A stretch of DNA of 20,438 nt, taken from an uncultured virus (IMG/VR IMGVR_UViG_3300030098_002223) (lineage: Duplodnaviria > Heunggongvirae > Uroviricota > Caudoviricetes). The notes beneath the pieces were generated by a model. That model saw only the letters and a program-made list of their open reading frames with translations. It was not told the origin of the DNA and ran no database searches. Shown here in pieces: positions 5,020 through 20,433 of the stretch; within the stretch, counting starts at the first letter, position 1; every line of letters starts with the position of its first letter. The position numbers and the translations under genes are program-made. The DNA lies in the IMG/VR virus record IMGVR_UViG_3300030098_002223, one strand, 5' to 3'.

Positions 5020-6885
5020 CTAAATTTCACATTTATCACCAACACAAGCATACTCAGATTTACCTTGAGTATTGTCTTGAGTCTCGTATTGGGACAATTG
5101 CTTATAATCAATTACGGGCTGAGCCTTTATAAGCCTTTCGTAGGTTCTGTGGTCAATTTCCTCATATGGAGCTAATTCATACTTTCCGCCCGAGTATGGC
5201 AGAAAAGACACTCCATTTATTATATCCCAGTTTTGGTACACCCAATTACCTACCTCAAACCATTCATCATCTCTAACATATACAGTCATACTAGCATTGT
5301 GTTCACACCAATTATGTTGTAGGTTCTTATAATGTTTCAACTGGTCTAGTGCTGTTACATCACTTCTAGTTATACACCCGTCAGGTGATTTGACTGGAAA
5401 TTCTAATACCCATGTACTAGCATCTTCCTTAGTTTGACCATTTTCTGGACTACATTTTACACCAGAATCTTTCATTAAATTAAATAATGGGTCACGAGCT
5501 GCTATTCTGTAACGACGGATGTAGTATTGAGAATATCTAGGGTGAACTCCAGACGCTGAGTCTACAAGCTGTGAAACTGTGCCCGATGGCTTTACACAAG
5601 TAGTTGCTGCTGGCATTTTAGTTCCTAATATACCTGATGCTTTGCGAGATATACGCAAAACACGGCTTTTAAGGGCTTTTAAAGCCTCCGATGTCAATAT
5701 GGAAGGGTTATCCATCTGACCAGTTAAACTAACGCCTAGAAGCGCTTCTACGTCACAATTCTTTTTCCACTCTTTTCTGAGGTATGGAAAATCTGTGAAC
5801 GAACTTTGTATAACACCAAGCCATGTTGCAGTCTCCACCTTGTCTAACAACGTATCAAGGTTATCGTCTTCTCTTACTACTACTTCCGAAAGGTTACAAA
5901 ATTGCATATCTCGTAACATTATTTCTCCACAAGGATTTGTACCTTGTATGAGTGGAGCGTAACGACGTGCAGGTGCTTTAGTTTGAGCTGAAGAAAGGTT
6001 AAATATACCTCTTTCTCCAGTACCTGATTTAGCTAATGCACCCCACTCTATAAGGAAATCAGCCGCTGAGGGCTTCTCTCTATAAATTGCACTATTATTA
6101 GCCATTGCCCTCTTAATAGGGAAAGGCCATTCTTTAGCATGTCTCATTTCTTTATCAGTTAAATCACTCAAAGATATCTGGGAGCTACGTCTTACACCCC
6201 CTACTACAACTATCTCTGCTATCTGGTTACAGATGTCATGAGCTTCTAATGTAGTTATCTTTCTACCTTGAGCGTTATGCATTGTTTCACGGATGAAATC
6301 GTGTAGTTTTACTAATGGTGCAGGACCAGACGCACGACCACCCATAGTCATAAGCCTAGCTCCTTCTCCTCTTATTTGAGAATAATCAAAATAAACATTC
6401 TGTCCTTTATATAAACTTCCCATTAATGTTTTCACTGAATCAGCCCATCCTGCTTTTGAATCATCAATAATGACTTTAGCATTACCTTGTGCTGATTTGA
6501 TAGTTGGTACTTCAGGTAACTTAGATACTTCCTCTTCTTCAACTGAGAAACCAAAACCAGTTCCACACATTAAAACATATAAACATTCTGCAAATGCATC
6601 AACTGAGTTAATTTTCGCAAAGGAGCAATTGTAAATACAAGTGTTGTCTGCTTTAGCTGCTGGGCCTGCTGCCCATAAAAATCTCATAGATGGCATTACT
6701 GCGAACTCCATCATATATTTTCTTATCTTGTTAATAGTTTTATCAGGTATATCTGGTCTTTCTGAAATTATAAAACCAATAAATCTTTCTATTGTTTCAG
6801 GCCAATCTTCTCGCCTGTTATCTTCTTCTAGCCAACGTGAATACGTTCTTTTATAAATAAATTCTGCTACTTCGTTTTTAAACAT
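5020..6885 (-). CDS. nrdJ: Class II (adenosylcobalamin-dependent) ribonucleotide reductase
   Basis: Motifs PSMRFLW, YNCSF, GTGFGFS, VVVGGVRRS, TNPCGE...FCNLSE, TCVKPSGTVSQL, EHNASMTV and C-terminal CVGDKCEI. Start 6885 has SD GGAGTGG and lies downstream of the predicted TSS. Confidence 0.93.
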   Translation of the reverse strand: MFKNEVAEFIYKRTYSRWLEEDNRREDWPETIERFIGFIISERPDIPDKTINKIRKYMMEFAVMPSMRFLWAAGPAAKADNTCIYNCSFAKINSVDAFAECLYVLMCGTGFGFSVEEEEVSKLPEVPTIKSAQGNAKVIIDDSKAGWADSVKTLMGSLYKGQNVYFDYSQIRGEGARLMTMGGRASGPAPLVKLHDFIRETMHNAQGRKITTLEAHDICNQIAEIVVVGGVRRSSQISLSDLTDKEMRHAKEWPFPIKRAMANNSAIYREKPSAADFLIEWGALAKSGTGERGIFNLSSAQTKAPARRYAPLIQGTNPCGEIMLRDMQFCNLSEVVVREDDNLDTLLDKVETATWLGVIQSSFTDFPYLRKEWKKNCDVEALLGVSLTGQMDNPSILTSEALKALKSRVLRISRKASGILGTKMPAATTCVKPSGTVSQLVDSASGVHPRYSQYYIRRYRIAARDPLFNLMKDSGVKCSPENGQTKEDASTWVLEFPVKSPDGCITRSDVTALDQLKHYKNLQHNWCEHNASMTVYVRDDEWFEVGNWVYQNWDIINGVSFLPYSGGKYELAPYEEIDHRTYERLIKAQPVIDYKQLSQYETQDNTQGKSEYACVGDKCEI

Positions 6886-6926
6886 TTTACCACTCCAATT
6901 GCGGTTCATTACTATAGTTTACGCTA

Positions 6927-11390: not shown

Positions 11391-11585
11391 TTATTGCTTT
11401 ATAGCTATAATATCTTTTTTATTAACAATAACGGTACCCTTTTCACCGGTTAGATAGACAAAATTATCATCATCATTCGTTATCATTCCTCTTCCTACTT
11501 TCGTTCTTTCTTCTTCTCGCCAAACCACTTTGACTTCTGCGTCTGTCAAAAATGCAGACAAAGGTTTACTTTCTTTTTCATCCAT
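11391..11585 (-). CDS. Sm/Lsm/Hfq-like small protein
   Basis: 64 aa from MDEKESK: short helix, then VKVVW...GRGMITNDDDNFVYL...VIVNKKDIIAI, matching the Sm1/Sm2 strand layout. Confidence 0.55.
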   Translation of the reverse strand: MDEKESKPLSAFLTDAEVKVVWREEERTKVGRGMITNDDDNFVYLTGEKGTVIVNKKDIIAIKQ

Positions 11586-11668: not shown

Positions 11669-12054
11669 CTAATATATGATATTACTTCTCTGAACTTATC
11701 CTCATCGTACTTACTTCTCCCCACGTTAGATATACGAGAACATATTACAATATTATCTTTAGTATAATCTTCTCCGCACTTAATTCTATCTACACTGAGA
11801 GCGAGTGGGTGCCAAGATACGTTAGTCCATTCTGGGTCCAATGGTATATCTAACCAATAACATTTACCACCTTGTTTATTATAGAAAATATCTTCTAAAT
11901 CCTCTGCATCAAAGTCTACCTTTTTAGGTATATAATTGGGTTTTAATTTCTTTTGCCCTGCATAACCTTTAGGACCATAGTCAGCACTCTTCTTGACATT
12001 ATAATATAATCTTCCAAATGGGTTACTATATTTTCTTGCTCCCATTATACCCAC
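11656..12054 (-). CDS. HNH-like (His-Me finger) endonuclease
   Basis: QGGKCYW...LSVDRI....YTKDNIVICS..SN...SK, the SxDR variant of HNH. Confidence 0.7.
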   Translation of the reverse strand: MGIMGARKYSNPFGRLYYNVKKSADYGPKGYAGQKKLKPNYIPKKVDFDAEDLEDIFYNKQGGKCYWLDIPLDPEWTNVSWHPLALSVDRIKCGEDYTKDNIVICSRISNVGRSKYDEDKFREVISYIRANL

Positions 12055-14279
12055 TCCGCTAATGTTTGTTGACTTTTATCCAAGAGGGTAATAGGTGGTT
12101 TCTTTTTAACCTTATCCTTTAGATTAAATTTTATCAATAGATTACTGATAGTATCCCAGTAATATGTTATGTCTATTTCTTCTATGGATGTAATAGTTTC
12201 TTTAAGTTTATATCCTTCCTTAGTCTTAGCATAAAAGTAAGTAGTACCAACTGAGGGGTCTATACCTATTTCTTTGCCTAGGTTAGATAATGTTACCGTC
12301 AAATCAGTATCTGATTTATATTCATCATACCCTCGGTTCATGCTTCTACGCATAATAAAGTCGTCTAACACATACTCATCAAGATTATATAACTTATCGA
12401 CAAAAGAACTTGTAACGGTGTTATTTAACCGAGCGTCAGATAATTTATCTAACACCTTATTATAGAATTTAGAGCGGCTCTTTGATTTAAATGTGCTTCC
12501 ATGCTTCGTAACACTACCATCCAAGTTACGCAATATATAATTACCAACTTGAATCCATACACCCTCATCATACTCATCCTTATCCATATCGATATGAACT
12601 GATTCACATTGACCGTTGAGTTTATATTCTAATAATTTACGCAATCTATTAGTTAACCATTGTTCGTCAACATCCACATTAGTATTAATCCCATCTGTAT
12701 GTACATATACCACAGCATCTTCTCCATATCTGCCACGGATGATATCGACGGCCGAAAGGATGAGGAACCGCGCCATCGCGGTGATAGTAATACCCACAGC
12801 CATATCACCGTAAGTAATGTAAGGATTAGCGTTTGCACCATAGAAAGTATTCACCATTATTTTAAGAGCATCGGACTTACTCTTGTCCTCTTTAGTCTTA
12901 CCAGCCTTATAAGGTTTTCGCATCTCTTTAAATGTAGAACACATATTATACAAACAACTATTCTCAGTTCTGTCAATTTTCACCATCAACCTTTTGTTAA
13001 CTTTATTATCAGGAACATAGAGGATTCCATCCTTAAACTCTATATCTGGGGTATACTCATCATAGCCCACAATTCTAGTCGTATCAGGCCCTAAGTTGAG
13101 AGCCATCGCTATAGAGGGGTAATACGAACTAAAATCTATTTTAAAGTTCTTAGCTTCAAAGCCCGGTCTATACAATTGAATGTGTGCAGCTTGGTAGTTG
13201 CCCTTATCAAATCTAAAAATTTGACTATGTCGCTCTTTGTTTCTATCAAGCGCTACTATGCCCTGCTCAAATAGAGCCCTGCCCTGTAGAATTTTCGTAA
13301 TGTAGCTACTGGGGGCGTTTATATAGGTCGCTAAGGGGACACAGAGAACCTCTGCTACGTATTGTATTTGTGGAAAGTAGTGGTTATACATAAACATTGT
13401 GCAGTCCACATCAGACAGAACGTAGTCTTCGATTTCTTGTAGCGAGTAGTCCATTAGGGTTTTGCTACCGAAGTCGAGCTCAATTGGATTGAGCCCAAAT
13501 GCTTGAGATACCTGCTTTAGACCACGAGGCAAGCCTGACAAAGAATAGTCCAGTCGTGCCCAGCGAAGGAGGTCGAGTATAACTCGGCCACCAGCTGCCA
13601 TCTTTAATTCACGTTGGTCCTTAGGGTCTTCATAGCCCCAGCTAGACCCATCTCGGTTGAGATGTTTTTTATATTGGGTTTCGTTTATATGATTATACCG
13701 AACTCTGTGTAGTATTTGTGGAATATCATAACCCACAAGATTCCACCCCGCAATAATATCAGGGTCATAGTCTTGTACAAAATTTGCGAAGTCCCATAAC
13801 AGTTGTTTATCATCTTGATTCTCATTATCCCATAGGAAGACTTTGCGCTCTCCGGTGGAACAGACAATGCCGATTGCTACGACAGGATATTTCTCTCCAA
13901 AAGGAAAGGTCCCATCGGGGGAGTGTGTTTCTATATCAAACACAAGGCATTTAACTTCTTTGTCGTTAGGGTAATCAGCAAAGAACTTAGGATGTTCTAT
14001 GCATAACCTTTCGAGTAAAGTTTCTCTTCCACCATCAAAGAGTGCGTGAGTAGGAATATGGTCCCTACCCGGTGTATATTCGTGCTTCTTTAGGTTGACA
14101 GTTTTATCAGAGCCTATAAGCTTCTTAGTCTCCCCTAAGTCATCCTCAGTATAGAAGTATGGTGTAAACGGAGACTTAACAGCCTCAGCTTGACCATTCC
14201 TATACATCTTGACCATCAAAGAATTATCTTTAAGGTTTATTGTGCGTTTGTTTATACTAGCAATAAGGGGAACTTTCAT
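12045..14279 (-). CDS. polB: Family B DNA polymerase with 3'-5' exonuclease and C-terminal PIP box
   Basis: ExoI FDIET, ExoII WN..GYD, ExoIII YVLSD, motif A DFSSYYPSI, motif B K..VNTFYG, motif C YVHTDG; ends QQTLAEWV (PCNA-interacting). Confidence 0.95.
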   Translation of the reverse strand: MKVPLIASINKRTINLKDNSLMVKMYRNGQAEAVKSPFTPYFYTEDDLGETKKLIGSDKTVNLKKHEYTPGRDHIPTHALFDGGRETLLERLCIEHPKFFADYPNDKEVKCLVFDIETHSPDGTFPFGEKYPVVAIGIVCSTGERKVFLWDNENQDDKQLLWDFANFVQDYDPDIIAGWNLVGYDIPQILHRVRYNHINETQYKKHLNRDGSSWGYEDPKDQRELKMAAGGRVILDLLRWARLDYSLSGLPRGLKQVSQAFGLNPIELDFGSKTLMDYSLQEIEDYVLSDVDCTMFMYNHYFPQIQYVAEVLCVPLATYINAPSSYITKILQGRALFEQGIVALDRNKERHSQIFRFDKGNYQAAHIQLYRPGFEAKNFKIDFSSYYPSIAMALNLGPDTTRIVGYDEYTPDIEFKDGILYVPDNKVNKRLMVKIDRTENSCLYNMCSTFKEMRKPYKAGKTKEDKSKSDALKIMVNTFYGANANPYITYGDMAVGITITAMARFLILSAVDIIRGRYGEDAVVYVHTDGINTNVDVDEQWLTNRLRKLLEYKLNGQCESVHIDMDKDEYDEGVWIQVGNYILRNLDGSVTKHGSTFKSKSRSKFYNKVLDKLSDARLNNTVTSSFVDKLYNLDEYVLDDFIMRRSMNRGYDEYKSDTDLTVTLSNLGKEIGIDPSVGTTYFYAKTKEGYKLKETITSIEEIDITYYWDTISNLLIKFNLKDKVKKKPPITLLDKSQQTLAEWV

Positions 14280-14521
14280 TCCACCCTCTTGATTTCATCT
14301 TCTTTTTTTATTTCCCACATCTTAATAAGAGAGTTAGCATCTTGTATAGCTTTACCCCATGCTCGATGTATTCGTGCAGCTGTATCATCGTCTCCTTTTA
14401 TCTCAGGTTCTAAATGAGCTGACATATCATAGTGGTAATCACTACACAATTTTAACATTTCAATCCACTGCTGTCTTTCGTCATCTGTGTTGACTGTGAG
14501 TTTTTTAATATCTACAGTCAT
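14276..14521 (-). CDS. Hypothetical helical protein
   Basis: 81 aa; TAATG and ATGA overlaps with its neighbours. Confidence 0.7.
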   Translation of the reverse strand: MTVDIKKLTVNTDDERQQWIEMLKLCSDYHYDMSAHLEPEIKGDDDTAARIHRAWGKAIQDANSLIKMWEIKKEDEIKRVE

Positions 14522-14841
14522 TAGTTCTCCTGATGGTAAGCTTCCATGTCTTCCTTAGACATTCTATTAAATAATTTATCCATATTATTTACCATCAACT
14601 CGGATAACTTTATATTATATACGTCACACAATCGTGTAAGATACCATAAAACGTCACCTAGTTCATCTATGATTAACTCTGTATTGTCTATTCTATCTCT
14701 TATCTCTTTTTTAAATGCTCCACCAACTTCACCGGCTTCATTCATTAAACCTATCATTAGGTATTCTTTTTCTCTACGTTTAGGATACTTCGCAGTTTTG
14801 CGAGTAAAATCCGTGTAGGTAGTTTCTATTCCTTTTACCAT
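14521..14841 (-). CDS. MazG-like nucleoside triphosphate pyrophosphohydrolase
   Basis: GLMNEAGEV...KK...DELGDVLWY...N..KL..R (ExxE...ExxD). Confidence 0.88.
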   Translation of the reverse strand: MVKGIETTYTDFTRKTAKYPKRREKEYLMIGLMNEAGEVGGAFKKEIRDRIDNTELIIDELGDVLWYLTRLCDVYNIKLSELMVNNMDKLFNRMSKEDMEAYHQEN

Positions 14842-15149
14842 ATGTTTAACTCCTCTGGTATTTTTGAGAGAATATTCTTTCTCTCAGTAGGGAGATAGCG
14901 GTATACTAAGTCTGCCTTTTGGTCGCTTTGTATGACCCACGGTTTAACTATAATTAAATCGTTCTCTCTACACCACATTCTTTTCTTCAGTTTACCACCG
15001 ATTCTAATCATGCGGGTTTTATTATCAGCACAGAGGGCTCTCATTCTAGAGCCACCTGTCATCTCAACTACAACAGCGAACATCTCATCTCGCTTAGGTA
15101 GTCTACTTCTTTTGAAAGTGTTCGTAGACTGTTTGGACTTCTTCGTCAT
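14835..15149 (-). CDS. eif1a: Archaeal translation initiation factor aIF-1A
   Basis: RLP...EMFAVV..M.GGSRM...C.D.KTR..RI.GK.KKRMW.RE.D..IV.PW......KAD..YRY; SD GGAG upstream. Confidence 0.93.
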   Translation of the reverse strand: MTKKSKQSTNTFKRSRLPKRDEMFAVVVEMTGGSRMRALCADNKTRMIRIGGKLKKRMWCRENDLIIVKPWVIQSDQKADLVYRYLPTERKNILSKIPEELNIW

Positions 15150-16575
15150 TGTAATCTCCTTCTGCGTTTAATAGAAAAGACTCATAGTCTTTAATCTTTG
15201 CATCTTTTGCGGTCTTGAATATTTTGTCATAATCTGCTGACTCTACTTCTACCGCACTCTTTGCTCTCTCACCCAGTTCAATATTGTTCCCAGTAAACGG
15301 GTCAACAATCTTAATACTGCTACAATTGCTCCTAATGTATTCATCAGATACTTCAGACCAATTCTCTCTAACAAACTCTTTTGTTTCTTCAATTAAATCA
15401 CTCCAATTTATTTTTGATACTGGTTCATTGATAAGAGGACTCTTGAAATATAAAGTTCTCTTACCATCATCTTCACTTTCTAAGAAACCAGTCATTAACA
15501 ATCCTGTTATTACTGGTCTCAGTTTGGTAAAGGGTAAACCTGCTGCTTTTGCAGCTTTTTTCATCTCTCCTTCAGACATCTTGACAGTGTCACTATCAGC
15601 GAAACCAAACTTATCTAACCTTGTGTCTGGAAATAATTTCAATATGTCAGTTCCATGACTTGGCATATGTAAACACTCTTCAACAAATGAGTTGAGATAT
15701 ATTCTCAGTCCAAGCCAGTTGTGTTTGGGTGACACTAAACCATAGGTTACACCATCTTTCTCTACTTTAGTTATTTCATTAGGATAAAATCTAGCTATTG
15801 CGTTGATTAACCTTAATAAATATTGAACCTTTGAACGAGATACGGGAAAGGCTGATGGTATAGCATCAAATAAGAATGGTGCACATGGGTTTTTTAACTC
15901 AGTTGCATCATCATCATCCCTTTCTCTAATAGCATCAAGAATATGTTCTTTCAACCCTTCTATTTCTTCATCACTCATAGAAGACATAGTTGTCTTTGGT
16001 AATGCTGAGTGCATTAGTTTATGTTTCAAGACTAGTTCTGTCTGCTTAACAGTTGGGTTAGTATGCATTATCATACATCTACGTTCTAACTCTGCATCAA
16101 ACATAGCTGAACCTTTGTCGTTCTCTACTGCAACTGCCATCAAAACATATTTAGGTTCTAACCATTGTGTGACTGAAGCTTTGATTGTTACATCTGTTTT
16201 CTTTCTGGTAGCTGTCCTACCGTCTGCCCAAGTCTTAATTATTTCCATTACACCCTCAGGTATCTTCTGTGCCTCCGGTATAGCTACAAATCTAGCATTG
16301 TTAATGGCTTCTTCATCATACCATATAGCTGTCTCAGACATATGTTCAACAGTATATATGTATTTATCAGGTAATAAGTTACCTATCGCTTCCATCAACA
16401 CAGTCTTACCTGTTCCACTATATGCTTTGATACAGAAATTAGTATCAGATAGTAAATAAGATAGGCTAGTAGTTAATGCTAATGCATCTTCTCCCAATAT
16501 AGGAAATAATGTTCCATCCTTCTTTTTTGCGTTGTGGAAATACCTCAACAAATCATATATTTCAAGTCTTTTCAT
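15103..16575 (-). CDS. AAA+ ATPase, MCM-like putative replicative helicase
   Basis: Walker A AYSGTGKT, Walker B-like FVAIPE, sensor region, arginine finger ELERR, helical lid and a possible C-terminal wHTH; located between SSB-like and polB genes. Confidence 0.65.
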   Translation of the reverse strand: MKRLEIYDLLRYFHNAKKKDGTLFPILGEDALALTTSLSYLLSDTNFCIKAYSGTGKTVLMEAIGNLLPDKYIYTVEHMSETAIWYDEEAINNARFVAIPEAQKIPEGVMEIIKTWADGRTATRKKTDVTIKASVTQWLEPKYVLMAVAVENDKGSAMFDAELERRCMIMHTNPTVKQTELVLKHKLMHSALPKTTMSSMSDEEIEGLKEHILDAIRERDDDDATELKNPCAPFLFDAIPSAFPVSRSKVQYLLRLINAIARFYPNEITKVEKDGVTYGLVSPKHNWLGLRIYLNSFVEECLHMPSHGTDILKLFPDTRLDKFGFADSDTVKMSEGEMKKAAKAAGLPFTKLRPVITGLLMTGFLESEDDGKRTLYFKSPLINEPVSKINWSDLIEETKEFVRENWSEVSDEYIRSNCSSIKIVDPFTGNNIELGERAKSAVEVESADYDKIFKTAKDAKIKDYESFLLNAEGDYNDEEVQTVYEHFQKK

Positions 16576-16678: not shown

Positions 16679-17340
16679 ACTTCCCTCGCATTTACTAGAT
16701 TGAGTATGTTGTGTTCACATAACTTGACTGCATACTTTTTAAGTTCCTTTTCTTCGATAGCTGGAAACCTATCCTTTAATAATAAAAATAAATCTATCAT
16801 TGTAATTGGTTGTCCGTCTTTGTCCTTTAGGAATTCAGCTACCTCTTCTGGTATAACCCATCTATATTTTTGTTCCTCACTGTTGGTTAAGTTAGGTCTA
16901 AACTTTTCCTCTACAAACATTTCATTGTCAGTTTTCTTTACAATATATCCATTAGTTTCTCTACCGAACGTAGTTGTAACCTTACCTTTCTCAAATTCAA
17001 AAACGAGGTCAGTAGGGTTTATTCCCTCTTCAATAAGCTGAGAGAATATTTTCTGGCACTCAGTATGAGAAGCGATAGTAAGTGTTAGGTGCTTCACTTC
17101 TTTCATTTCACTGATATATATTCCGTAAGTAAATTCATTAATCTTAGGTGTTCCATTCTTACAGAAGACACATTCTGCTTCTTTTGCCCAACACTTATTG
17201 CGTTTCTTTGTAGTAGGATTCCAATGTTTAACTCTATGTATAGGGGCTATAAAGGCAAACTGTCCCAAAGCTTTCATTGAGTCTAATAACCACACTCTCG
17301 AACTTCGGGGCGATTGTATCCAATCTTTGTATTCACTCAT
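16669..17340 (-). CDS. Putative Zn-binding ssDNA-binding protein (gp32-like)
   Basis: HW...KCW....CVFC (H-C-C-C Zn site) within OB-like strands; adjacent to the helicase-like gene. Confidence 0.5.
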   Translation of the reverse strand: MSEYKDWIQSPRSSRVWLLDSMKALGQFAFIAPIHRVKHWNPTTKKRNKCWAKEAECVFCKNGTPKINEFTYGIYISEMKEVKHLTLTIASHTECQKIFSQLIEEGINPTDLVFEFEKGKVTTTFGRETNGYIVKKTDNEMFVEEKFRPNLTNSEEQKYRWVIPEEVAEFLKDKDGQPITMIDLFLLLKDRFPAIEEKELKKYAVKLCEHNILNLVNAREVWI

Positions 17341-17699
17341 TCTATTTCTACTTTCTTAGCTGATGTCTTTTCTTTCTTTTCGATGGTCATATCGAGAATA
17401 CCATTGACCATAGTTGCTTTGACTGACTCTGGGTCTACTTCATAATTGAATGTTCTATCCCATGAAAAGTTCTTTCTATCAGACTTAGCGTTGATTGTAA
17501 CAGTTCTGTTACTAACTTCTATATCAACTTGGTCTTTATCTACTCCAGCTAACTCAGCTGTAATAGTTATAGTTCCATTCTCTTCGTTCATTTGAACATC
17601 GTTTCTATGTTGGTAACGTGGTGTGTTAGGAACCATCTCAATTTGGTCGAGTAAGTCCTGCCACATTTCCATCATATCTCTAGTTCTTCTGTCCCACAT
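17337..17699 (-). CDS. Small heat-shock protein (Hsp20/alpha-crystallin)
   Basis: ITAELAGVDKDQVDIEV...VDPESVKATMVNGILDMTIEK, with C-terminal VEI (IXI-type) motif. Confidence 0.92.
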   Translation of the reverse strand: MWDRRTRDMMEMWQDLLDQIEMVPNTPRYQHRNDVQMNEENGTITITAELAGVDKDQVDIEVSNRTVTINAKSDRKNFSWDRTFNYEVDPESVKATMVNGILDMTIEKKEKTSAKKVEIE

Positions 17700-17925: not shown

Positions 17926-18129
17926 TTATCCATGCATGTTGGTTGAGGATTGCATAGGTATCCCCTTGACATCAATCTCTAATAGTTTTTCACCATATGC
18001 TGAGATTAGTTTGTCTAATGTTTNNNNNNNNNNTAAAAGATGTGTCATCTTAGCGGCATCCATCTTAGCTGACATCAAATCAGCCGCCATATCAATATGC
18101 ATTGGTGGTTCAGAAGATGAATCTGTCAT
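17926..18129 (-). CDS. Hypothetical protein interrupted by an assembly gap
   Basis: ORF spans the N-run; SD GGAGGT upstream; true length uncertain. Confidence 0.5.
   Translation of the reverse strand: MTDSSSEPPMHIDMAADLMSAKMDAAKMTHLLXXXXTLDKLISAYGEKLLEIDVKGIPMQSSTNMHG
18024..18033. other. Assembly/scaffold gap (10 N)
   Basis: Run of ten N characters. Confidence 0.99.
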
Positions 18130-19586: not shown

Positions 19587-19838
19587 TTATTTAAACCACA
19601 AATAATATGCGATTACCCCTAAACACAATAGATTACCGATTGTATATAAAATTATTGTCTTCATATTTATATCATTTTTCTTTTTTGGTATCTTCTTAGT
19701 TGTTTTTACTGTGAAATGAGGTATTGCTCCCCAACACTCGTCGCATAAGTATGCTTTGAGATGTGGTTCTTCACTTGTATAATGAGTGTGACATCTATTA
19801 CAGTTATGCCACATCACTTTGTAATAATTAGGCTTCAC
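19587..19838 (-). CDS. Zinc-finger protein with C-terminal membrane anchor
   Basis: CNRC...CDEC followed by a hydrophobic helix IILYTIGNLLCLGVIAYYLWF; the true start may be the ATG at 19814. Confidence 0.65.
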   Translation of the reverse strand: MKPNYYKVMWHNCNRCHTHYTSEEPHLKAYLCDECWGAIPHFTVKTTKKIPKKKNDINMKTIILYTIGNLLCLGVIAYYLWFK

Positions 19839-20433
19839 TTACTTTCTTAGCTACAGCCATGTATTTTTCTACAGCCATAAGGATAGGTGGTTGTAACTCT
19901 TTTGGTATATAATCTATCCCATCCATGCCGTTGTCTAAATCTTGATAAAAGATTTCTAAGTATGCACTAAAGTTATCTGTGATGTAGTGATAACCATTAG
20001 CAACATCTTCATCATAATCTCTTATAAAGTTAATAACTTGAAATGCTCTACCCAATGCTCTGGCGTGTATCTCACAGCGTGGGTGACATCCTAATATCTT
20101 TGACATCATCATACCAACTGACTCAGCTGAGCCTTTACAGTAATCTAACATAGATACAATGGTGTGCTCTTTCTTTATCATATCTTGATACATACTTATG
20201 TGAAAGTCTGAGAGCCATTCACCTTCGAACTGATACTTGTCACTCACTTCGTAGAATTGTTCTATAACTTCTCTCCAATGTTTGAAATCATGTAGAGTCT
20301 TCTCTCCTTCAACCATCTCATCACATACTCTAAGGTATGCATATAGTTTGTATATATCTTCTTTGATATCATCTGGCCACGCACTCATACACTCAAAGAA
20401 TGTAGTGCTGTATTCTTCCATTATCTCTTTCAT
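19828..20433 (-). CDS. Phytoene/squalene synthase family (head-to-head trans-isoprenyl diphosphate synthase)
   Basis: YSTTFF, LYAYLRVCDEMVE, YC..SAESVG.MM, ARALGRAFQVINFIRDYDED..NG..YI. The start may lie beyond the window edge. Confidence 0.88.
   Translation of the reverse strand: MKEIMEEYSTTFFECMSAWPDDIKEDIYKLYAYLRVCDEMVEGEKTLHDFKHWREVIEQFYEVSDKYQFEGEWLSDFHISMYQDMIKKEHTIVSMLDYCKGSAESVGMMMSKILGCHPRCEIHARALGRAFQVINFIRDYDEDVANGYHYITDNFSAYLEIFYQDLDNGMDGIDYIPKELQPPILMAVEKYMAVAKKVSEA

Follow-up and report, generated by a model that had tools for sequence, protein, structure and literature searches.

The stretch of DNA analysed here (the window; 20,438 nucleotides, IMG/VR record IMGVR_UViG_3300030098_002223) carries a gene for the archaeal translation initiation factor aIF-1A, which lies between the genes for an AAA+-type ATPase and a MazG-like pyrophosphatase (Table 1). 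The reading frame starts with ATG and contains no internal stop. Its product exceeds the cut-offs of the Pfam model eIF-1a (PF01176; 57.9 bits, cut-off 30.2) and of the NCBIfam model NF003084 IF-1A (106.6, cut-off 91) and misses that of the equivalog (same-function) model TIGR00523 (88.2, cut-off 102.9). The best solved relative by sequence is the aIF-1A of M. jannaschii (1JT8, E 7e-23). PHROGs contained no family for the viral protein, and a tblastn search with it against GenBank phages gave no match. The initial annotation had described an intact aIF-1A with its own Shine-Dalgarno (SD) site which overlaps both neighbouring genes. This description holds, the overlaps being 47 nt with the upstream ATPase gene and 7 nt with the MazG gene.

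Table 1. Features of the aIF-1A gene block in the window.
Feature	Position	Strand	Remarks
Conserved 64-aa protein, predicted Hfq/Sm-like fold	11391..11585	-	Model search; aIF-1A gene block
Family B DNA polymerase (PolB)	12045..14279	-	Same gene block as aIF-1A
MazG-like pyrophosphatase	14521..14841	-	PF03819, phrog_229; its ATG lies within the last two codons (Ile-Trp) of aIF-1A
aIF-1A gene, 104 aa	14835..15149	-	OB fold between a basic N-terminal arm and a short helical C-terminal part; acidic tail absent
SD of the MazG gene	14850..14855	-	Within the final codons of aIF-1A
AAA+-type ATPase, 490 aa, probable replicative helicase	15103..16575	-	phrog_12057, motifs, Atlas lead PF27228, which suggest the helicase role
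SD of aIF-1A	15156..15161	-	AAGGAG, 6-nt spacer to ATG; within the ATPase coding sequence
Near-frozen synonymous stretch in the ATPase gene	15247..15333	-	Possibly structured RNA; not tied to aIF-1A

The upstream gene had been called helicase-like, a label which its Walker A and arginine-finger-like motifs, weak AAA matches under the cut-off and the Atlas lead, present on 10-25% of the cluster members, make plausible and which is held back by the failure to find a solved relative. On the other side of aIF-1A, the codons of the terminal Ile-Trp hold the MazG start, so that their conservation was given no weight as a sign of function. The model of the highly conserved 64-aa protein found mostly Hfq/Sm chains among its top matches (M. 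jannaschii Hfq at rank 2, E 0.018, TM 0.73) and no structural match at E ≤ 0.001. The block also holds genes for an Hsp20 and a glycosyltransferase. The Hsp20 (17337-17699), which scores best, though under the cut-off, with the archaeal NCBIfam model, is more variable than the genes around it and could be used as a second host marker. Elsewhere in the window lie a B12-dependent ribonucleotide reductase gene (5020-6909) and a squalene/phytoene synthase-like gene (19828-20433, minus strand; PF00494, 88.3 bits), the latter being found in many relatives and in some of them beside MazG. A CobT-like VWA gene occurs in relatives (L001:181-1983). A short run of N near 18020 falls into the ORF 17926-18129, and the matching stretch of the nearest record, G001, is 57 bases longer than the window. 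A scan for sigma-70 promoters stayed at chance level (62 sites against 56.9 +/- 7.3), with a model which does not suit archaea.

The viral setting is well documented by related records. G001 (63,147 bp, 90% complete) contains 100% of the window's sampled 31-mers and encodes terminase, portal, major head, tail-fibre and tape-measure proteins, by which it belongs to the Caudoviricetes; a search of GenBank phages with its major capsid protein gave no match. The gene set is shared by five relatives of 54-81 kb, each of which encodes one aIF-1A without stops. In two (G002, G004) the first 100 bases reappear later in the record, which fits their completeness estimate of 100%. Records of the group contain zero or one tRNA; G003 (L117) has a tRNA-Glu at 1226-1298 and, just above the gathering score, a manA RNA motif at 714-899, neither of which was found in G001.

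We looked for signs that the locus is cellular, chimeric or decayed, and they were not borne out. One bacterial bin of GTDB, assigned to Maricaulis, does have a copy (L093), but this contig also carries the viral ATPase at 84% identity and is therefore a misbinned viral contig. An independent contig (L016) shows the same gene order and a 100% identical aIF-1A protein. When 185,579 species genomes were scanned with the motifs of the clade, zero archaeal genomes matched, the only matches being L093 and one weak bacterial match of 27 residues. A neutral passenger is contradicted by the dN/dS of 0.067 for the core of the protein (residues 17-90, outside the overlaps), which is similar to that of PolB and the ATPase. 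Host DNA, a chimera or a passenger gene is thus largely refuted as an explanation and can hardly hold; the aIF-1A locus is neither a host fragment nor a chimera, and the gene is integrated, intact, in the viral replication block, as had been proposed. Database entries of this clade can mislead, one of them being filed under Maricaulis: MAL10741.1, 'IF-1A [Maricaulis sp.]', clusters with the viral proteins and is very probably labelled wrongly.

Comparison of the flanking sequences showed a constant gene order. Among 92 loci from viral and metagenome contigs, some of which are one contig present in two collections, the ATPase stands to the left of aIF-1A in 85 and MazG to its right in 86. The remaining loci end within 144 bp of aIF-1A, and wherever a related locus has sufficient flank, the gene order is ATPase-aIF1A-MazG. 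A search of viral contigs seeded with the ATPase yielded 45 loci, of which 43 could be evaluated, two being without usable downstream flank; aIF-1A lies directly downstream of the ATPase in 37 of the 43 and is absent there in six. Five records without aIF-1A near PolB or the ATPase had no copy elsewhere within sequences that are 12-81% complete. Together with the six loci they indicate that the gene is dispensable in some lineages. In a tree of the ATPase (36 of the 45 loci), the root of which was set by us on the long central branch, both branches of the deepest split include members with aIF-1A, a distribution that is explained by two changes. The gene therefore appears to be ancestral in the group, with two apparent losses.

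Distances of aIF-1A and ATPase are correlated across 32 loci (Spearman 0.74), while PolB identity within the lineage falls to 47%. The median dN/dS of the whole aIF-1A is 0.140 (81 distinct sequences, 1101 pairs), and those of the neighbours are 0.091 (MazG), 0.106 (ATPase) and 0.093 (PolB); all values derive from pairs with dS 0.1-1.5, which are not independent, and from at most 45 sequences for the long genes. A stop flagged in the aIF-1A of L111 arose where the alignment ran upstream of an intact 98-aa gene. A different history is suggested for L195, the aIF-1A of which is at a distance of about 50% from that of relatives with an ATPase distance of 25% and groups weakly with proteins of Marine Group III (MGIII; 85/74, 65/80); it may be a fresh capture from a host. 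L195 (11427-11762) and L192 lie on one 31-kb contig, where two distinct ATPase loci run in opposite directions and a host-like aIF-1A accompanies one of them and not the other; this contig may be a chimeric assembly of two viruses. Altogether, aIF-1A is an old, conserved, near-core gene of a marine lineage of archaeal tailed viruses that apparently has no name.

The conserved Trp and the basic face of aIF1A touch rRNA, and the structure of the aIF1A-aIF5B interface, which measures 329 Å2, has been solved. In the predicted model of the viral protein (pLDDT 82.6) an OB fold is followed by a helical C-terminal part. Its best Foldseek match is P. abyssi aIF1A (4MNO; E 4e-10, TM 0.76, rmsd 2.2 Å) and the next is the same factor on the 30S subunit (7ZAI). 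Within the beta2-beta3 loop, C40 and D42 are invariant in 121 of 121 viral proteins; a loop with strictly conserved Cys and Asp is described in the accessible sections of Kazan et al. (PMC9226500) as the aIF5B contact of archaeal aIF1A. The Gly after the loop Asp is replaced by Asn in the window's protein and in 38 of the 121. Equally invariant (121/121) are R46, R49, K55, W59, D64, R84 and Y85. Position 51 is Gly in all 121 close viral relatives, which form the sub-clade of the window, and mostly Pro in archaeal rows. The sequence alignment to P. abyssi ends at query residue 95, and the aIF5B-contacting residue of the C-terminal helix there is E103. With the archaeal factors (PF01176; 4MNO, 7ZAI, 1JT8) the viral form thus shares the OB fold with its short helical end, the C-x-D loop, the basic face with the Trp and the lack of the eukaryote-type acidic DIDDI tail; it differs from them in being virus-encoded, in forming a clade of its own, in being more basic (net charge +13, pI 10.3), in Gly 51 and in staying under the TIGR00523 cut-off.

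Archaeal aIF1A sits in the 30S A site and has a role in start-codon selection and in the work with aIF5B, according to the available portions of two studies (PMC7531240, PMC9226500). We consider it very probable that the viral protein acts on the ribosome. Its place between an ATPase and a polymerase gene might alternatively be explained by a repurposed OB fold which serves the viral replisome as a helper binding single-stranded nucleic acids. The fixed position in the replication block, the strong basicity and the fact that PCNA and RadA were not detected in five of five records agree with such a role, but the protein has kept both the residues of the aIF5B-contact loop and the helical C-terminal part, neither of which a plain ssDNA binder needs. 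Moreover, since the block also holds Hsp20, the glycosyltransferase and the Hfq-like gene, position tells more about timing than about function. We therefore regard a replisome helper as very improbable.

Phylogenetic comparison with cellular factors bears on the origin of the gene. Only proteins of the viral type appear among the best 120 homologues of the viral aIF-1A. Three trees unite the viral proteins in a single long-stem clade (support 98; 98/98 with one long unnamed branch inside; 99/90), which is nested in no host clade and stands on the side of MGII, MGIII and other Thermoplasmatota-like proteins (93/88, 83/92). These trees are based on about 100 columns with mostly unnamed cellular rows, and 18 of 64 rows were left out of one of them. 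The phylogeny called for in the initial annotation hence yields a distinct old viral clade beside the Thermoplasmatota, with no single donor clade recovered. Names in the nearest cellular clade are 'Marine Group III euryarchaeote' (two proteins) and 'Ca. Poseidoniales archaeon' (three), and three proteins of another clade, characterised by long acidic tails, bear the name Poseidoniaceae; the labels MGIII and MGII rest on these eight named database proteins. A reading of the virus as a magrovirus of MGII was dropped as unproven, as the nearest cellular clade carries MGIII names.

Several characters connect the viral proteins, which are 45-54% identical to the MGIII-type reference, with MGIII aIF1A (OIR19046.1, MDC0161355.1). 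By BLOSUM score, 14 of 18 viral rows match MGIII best, and not one matches MGII best. The motif Pro-Tyr-x-Pro-[Lys/Arg]-x-Glu is found in 119/119 MGIII-type and in six of seven deep-branching viral proteins and in 0/119 of the MGII type; among 149 representatives it occurs in six, including four that are viral-like or of the MGIII type. The last conserved Pro motif is followed by eight residues both in the viral proteins (median) and in all 119 MGIII-type proteins, whereas the tail of the MGII type comprises 57-264 residues (median 112, 119 proteins). Unlike the MGIII factors, the viral proteins have no acidic N-terminal extension, and their loop before the last strand is, in the alignments, one residue longer than in MGIII and MGII; an MGII loop length taken from a pattern count proved to be a matching artefact and was replaced by the alignments. 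The pairing of the viral clade with MGIII has a support of 34/77 in one tree and is not recovered in the other. AU tests reject neither MGIII (4.9 log units, p 0.35) nor MGII (10.0, p 0.23) as its sister. The gene had been called a strong host marker; because the trees leave both groups possible as donor, this is overstated. Sequence comparison points to a donor on the Thermoplasmatota side and leans towards MGIII. As host, MGIII has about an even chance, while MGII on the one hand and another Thermoplasmatota or other archaeon on the other are each considerably less probable.

SD-led, overlapping genes are common in these viruses: an SD of at least 5 nt precedes 124 of 301 conserved viral genes, compared with 9% of control sites. 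The glycine codon which forms the SD of aIF-1A is GGA in 79 of 81 related ATPase genes, and at the other 15 conserved glycine columns of the ATPase GGA accounts for 1-62%, two columns being equally fixed for another codon. The ATPase gene contains a further conserved element, the near-frozen stretch of Table 1. A multi-loop fold with many G-U-tolerant changes is predicted for its sense strand, with compensatory change in only two of 19 predicted pairs. No Rfam match was obtained for this stretch and no conserved overlapping ORF is evident in it. As an autoregulatory RNA of aIF-1A it was rejected, since it is kept in L187, L192 and L233, which are without aIF-1A, and missing in deep members which carry the gene.

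The drift from the cellular factors, as seen in Gly 51, in the charge of +13 against +7 in MGIII-type proteins and in the TIGR00523 shortfall, could mean a changed job. The viral factor might bind the A site, displace the host factor and change initiation. If the host is MGII, the tail-less and more basic copy would remove whatever the acidic tail recruits or regulates; alternatively, start-codon checking might be relaxed in favour of coupled, SD-led viral genes. The contrast between the MGII-type tail and the short viral end, the higher viral charge, the fixed Pro-to-Gly change, the frequency of strong SDs, the Hfq/Sm-like gene in the same block and the AU result for MGII can all be brought into line with such a takeover. 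However, the MGIII-type factor is itself tail-less, so that the missing viral tail needs no special story, and it is MGIII, never MGII, that the viral rows match best. aIF1A is not known to select mRNAs. We hold a takeover of this kind, in any of its forms, to be unlikely.

It is also conceivable that the host destroys, modifies or sequesters its own aIF1A, or idles its ribosomes, upon infection, and that the diverged viral copy, alongside MazG, escapes this shutdown or shields the decoding site. We know of no archaeal defence that targets aIF1A or idles ribosomes in this way. A divergence of about 50% from host factors with a fixed core fits escape, and aIF-1A is coupled in 86 of 92 loci to the gene for MazG, a protein which the accessible text of PMC8651126 interprets as counter-defence in archaeal tailed viruses. 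The two genes do part company, though: the deepest-branching members have aIF-1A without MazG beside it, and some members without aIF-1A keep MazG. A counter-defence function is accordingly improbable in our estimation, more so than a takeover.

The initial annotation had considered initiation factors familiar from giant eukaryotic viruses and some large phages and not known as typical of archaeal tailed viruses. The first part stands. IF1 of huge phages, for which the sections available of Al-Shayeb et al. (PMC7162821) propose that it redirects or sustains host translation, and the eIF1A of giant viruses are likewise universal A-site initiation factors carried by viruses. Those viruses have very large genomes with many translation genes; here we find 54-81 kb, one archaeal-type initiation factor, zero or one tRNA and a fixed gene order. 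On the second part, there is a survey of archaeal proviruses, the available part of which names 'translation initiation factor IF1' in one phrase among the genes of five of them (PMC13573593). Archaeal tailed viruses also carry L21e, Trm112 and tRNAs (PMC8651126, sections at hand). These Caudoviricetes resemble ours in having host-derived translation components, but in the available parts of both sources the cases are sporadic, whereas aIF-1A is ancestral and near-core across the present lineage. A pattern scan of IMG/VR, broad enough for the MGIII form, returned 40 loci, 33 of this group and seven weaker; four of the seven were translated and gave eukaryote-type proteins with acidic tails, three of them from giant-virus bins. 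Such pattern-seeded scans can miss other archaeal viruses with aIF-1A. BFVD matches comprised giant-virus eIF1A and an 'IF-1A' of Virus NIOZ-UU159 (E 4e-3), and viral proteins make up 100% and 57% of the two top Atlas clusters, which shows that automatic annotations of the viral aIF-1A exist.

Among the closest described systems are also the magroviruses (Magrovirales) and Adrikavirales of Poseidoniales, which share with the present group a marine habitat, the head-tail form, a block of morphogenesis genes, a replication block with PolB and probable Poseidoniia hosts. Magrovirus genomes are larger, at roughly 100 kb, and groups A-C have a sliding clamp and RadA in all genomes (PMC5434244, available text); PF00705 and PF08423 had no match in our five records, and according to the accessible part of that study, clamp and RadA were found there only by profile-profile search. 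A chaperonin gene, common and not universal in magroviruses (38 of 58 genomes in the sections available of PMC5332604), was found in none of our five records, four of which are 96-100% complete. The accessible text of both magrovirus papers contains no initiation factor. aIF-1A is not mentioned in the accessible parts of PMC11706807, PMC10160649, PMC8651126, PMC5474096, PMC5628999 and PMC13465236, the figure maps of which could label the gene, nor in the whole text of PMC13108676 or the text supplements of several related papers. In this literature we found no published description of aIF-1A as a near-core gene of an archaeal tailed-virus lineage, a statement on which the supplement of PMC13573593, a source at hand in part, may bear. 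Virus-encoded IF1/eIF1A is thus already known; its archaeal, ancestral, small-genome form was not found in print.

Purifying selection, the invariant loop residues, the fold match, the synteny and the presence in 37 of 43 loci together favour the reading that the viral protein is a working A-site factor which is produced together with the replication proteins and supplements initiation; on balance, we think this probable. The ancestor of the marine head-tail virus group would have taken aIF-1A from a Thermoplasmatota archaeon, most likely from the MGIII side of Poseidoniia, and the gene would then have been inherited mostly vertically between the probable helicase gene and the MazG and PolB genes. 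The factor would be translated from the SD-led, translationally coupled message of the replication genes, bind the host 30S A site like the cellular factor and cooperate with the aIF1, aIF2 and aIF5B of the host in selecting start codons and joining the subunits. Initiation would thereby be kept running while host gene expression falls. As a general supplement, it would not pick out viral mRNAs, which would gain because they are abundant and SD-led. During infection by an unrelated haloarchaeal virus, host aIF1A, aIF1 and aIF5B are sustained or modestly up while most translation genes are down (bioRxiv 10.64898/2026.09.13.751334, accessible part). In the available portion of a P. abyssi study, subunit joining was not clearly slowed without aIF1A (PMC9226500), so that a benefit of additional supply is not self-evident.

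A bolder proposal can be attached to these data. In an undescribed, widespread family of marine tailed viruses of MGIII, or of its MGII sisters, the ancestral aIF-1A may have been tuned, through its more basic charge and its fixed substitutions, to out-compete the host factor and, together with the Hfq/Sm-like chaperone, to re-program ribosomes toward coupled, SD-led viral messages. We rate this proposal as unlikely, slightly more so than the takeover in general; if true, it would mean that viruses of Archaea take over translation by way of an initiation factor. Takeover of translation by archaeal viruses is, to our knowledge, barely described. The viral aIF-1A, being small, soluble and naturally varied, can be introduced into archaeal initiation assays and depletion strains that are already available, so that the question can be addressed even though the host is uncultured. 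The gene, moreover, draws attention to a marine virus group of diverse sequence without match to the GenBank phage records searched and hints at MGIII hosts, for which no described virus group was found in the literature searched. The findings suggest that this marine virus group, which most likely infects uncultured archaea of the ocean, props up or steers the protein synthesis of its hosts.
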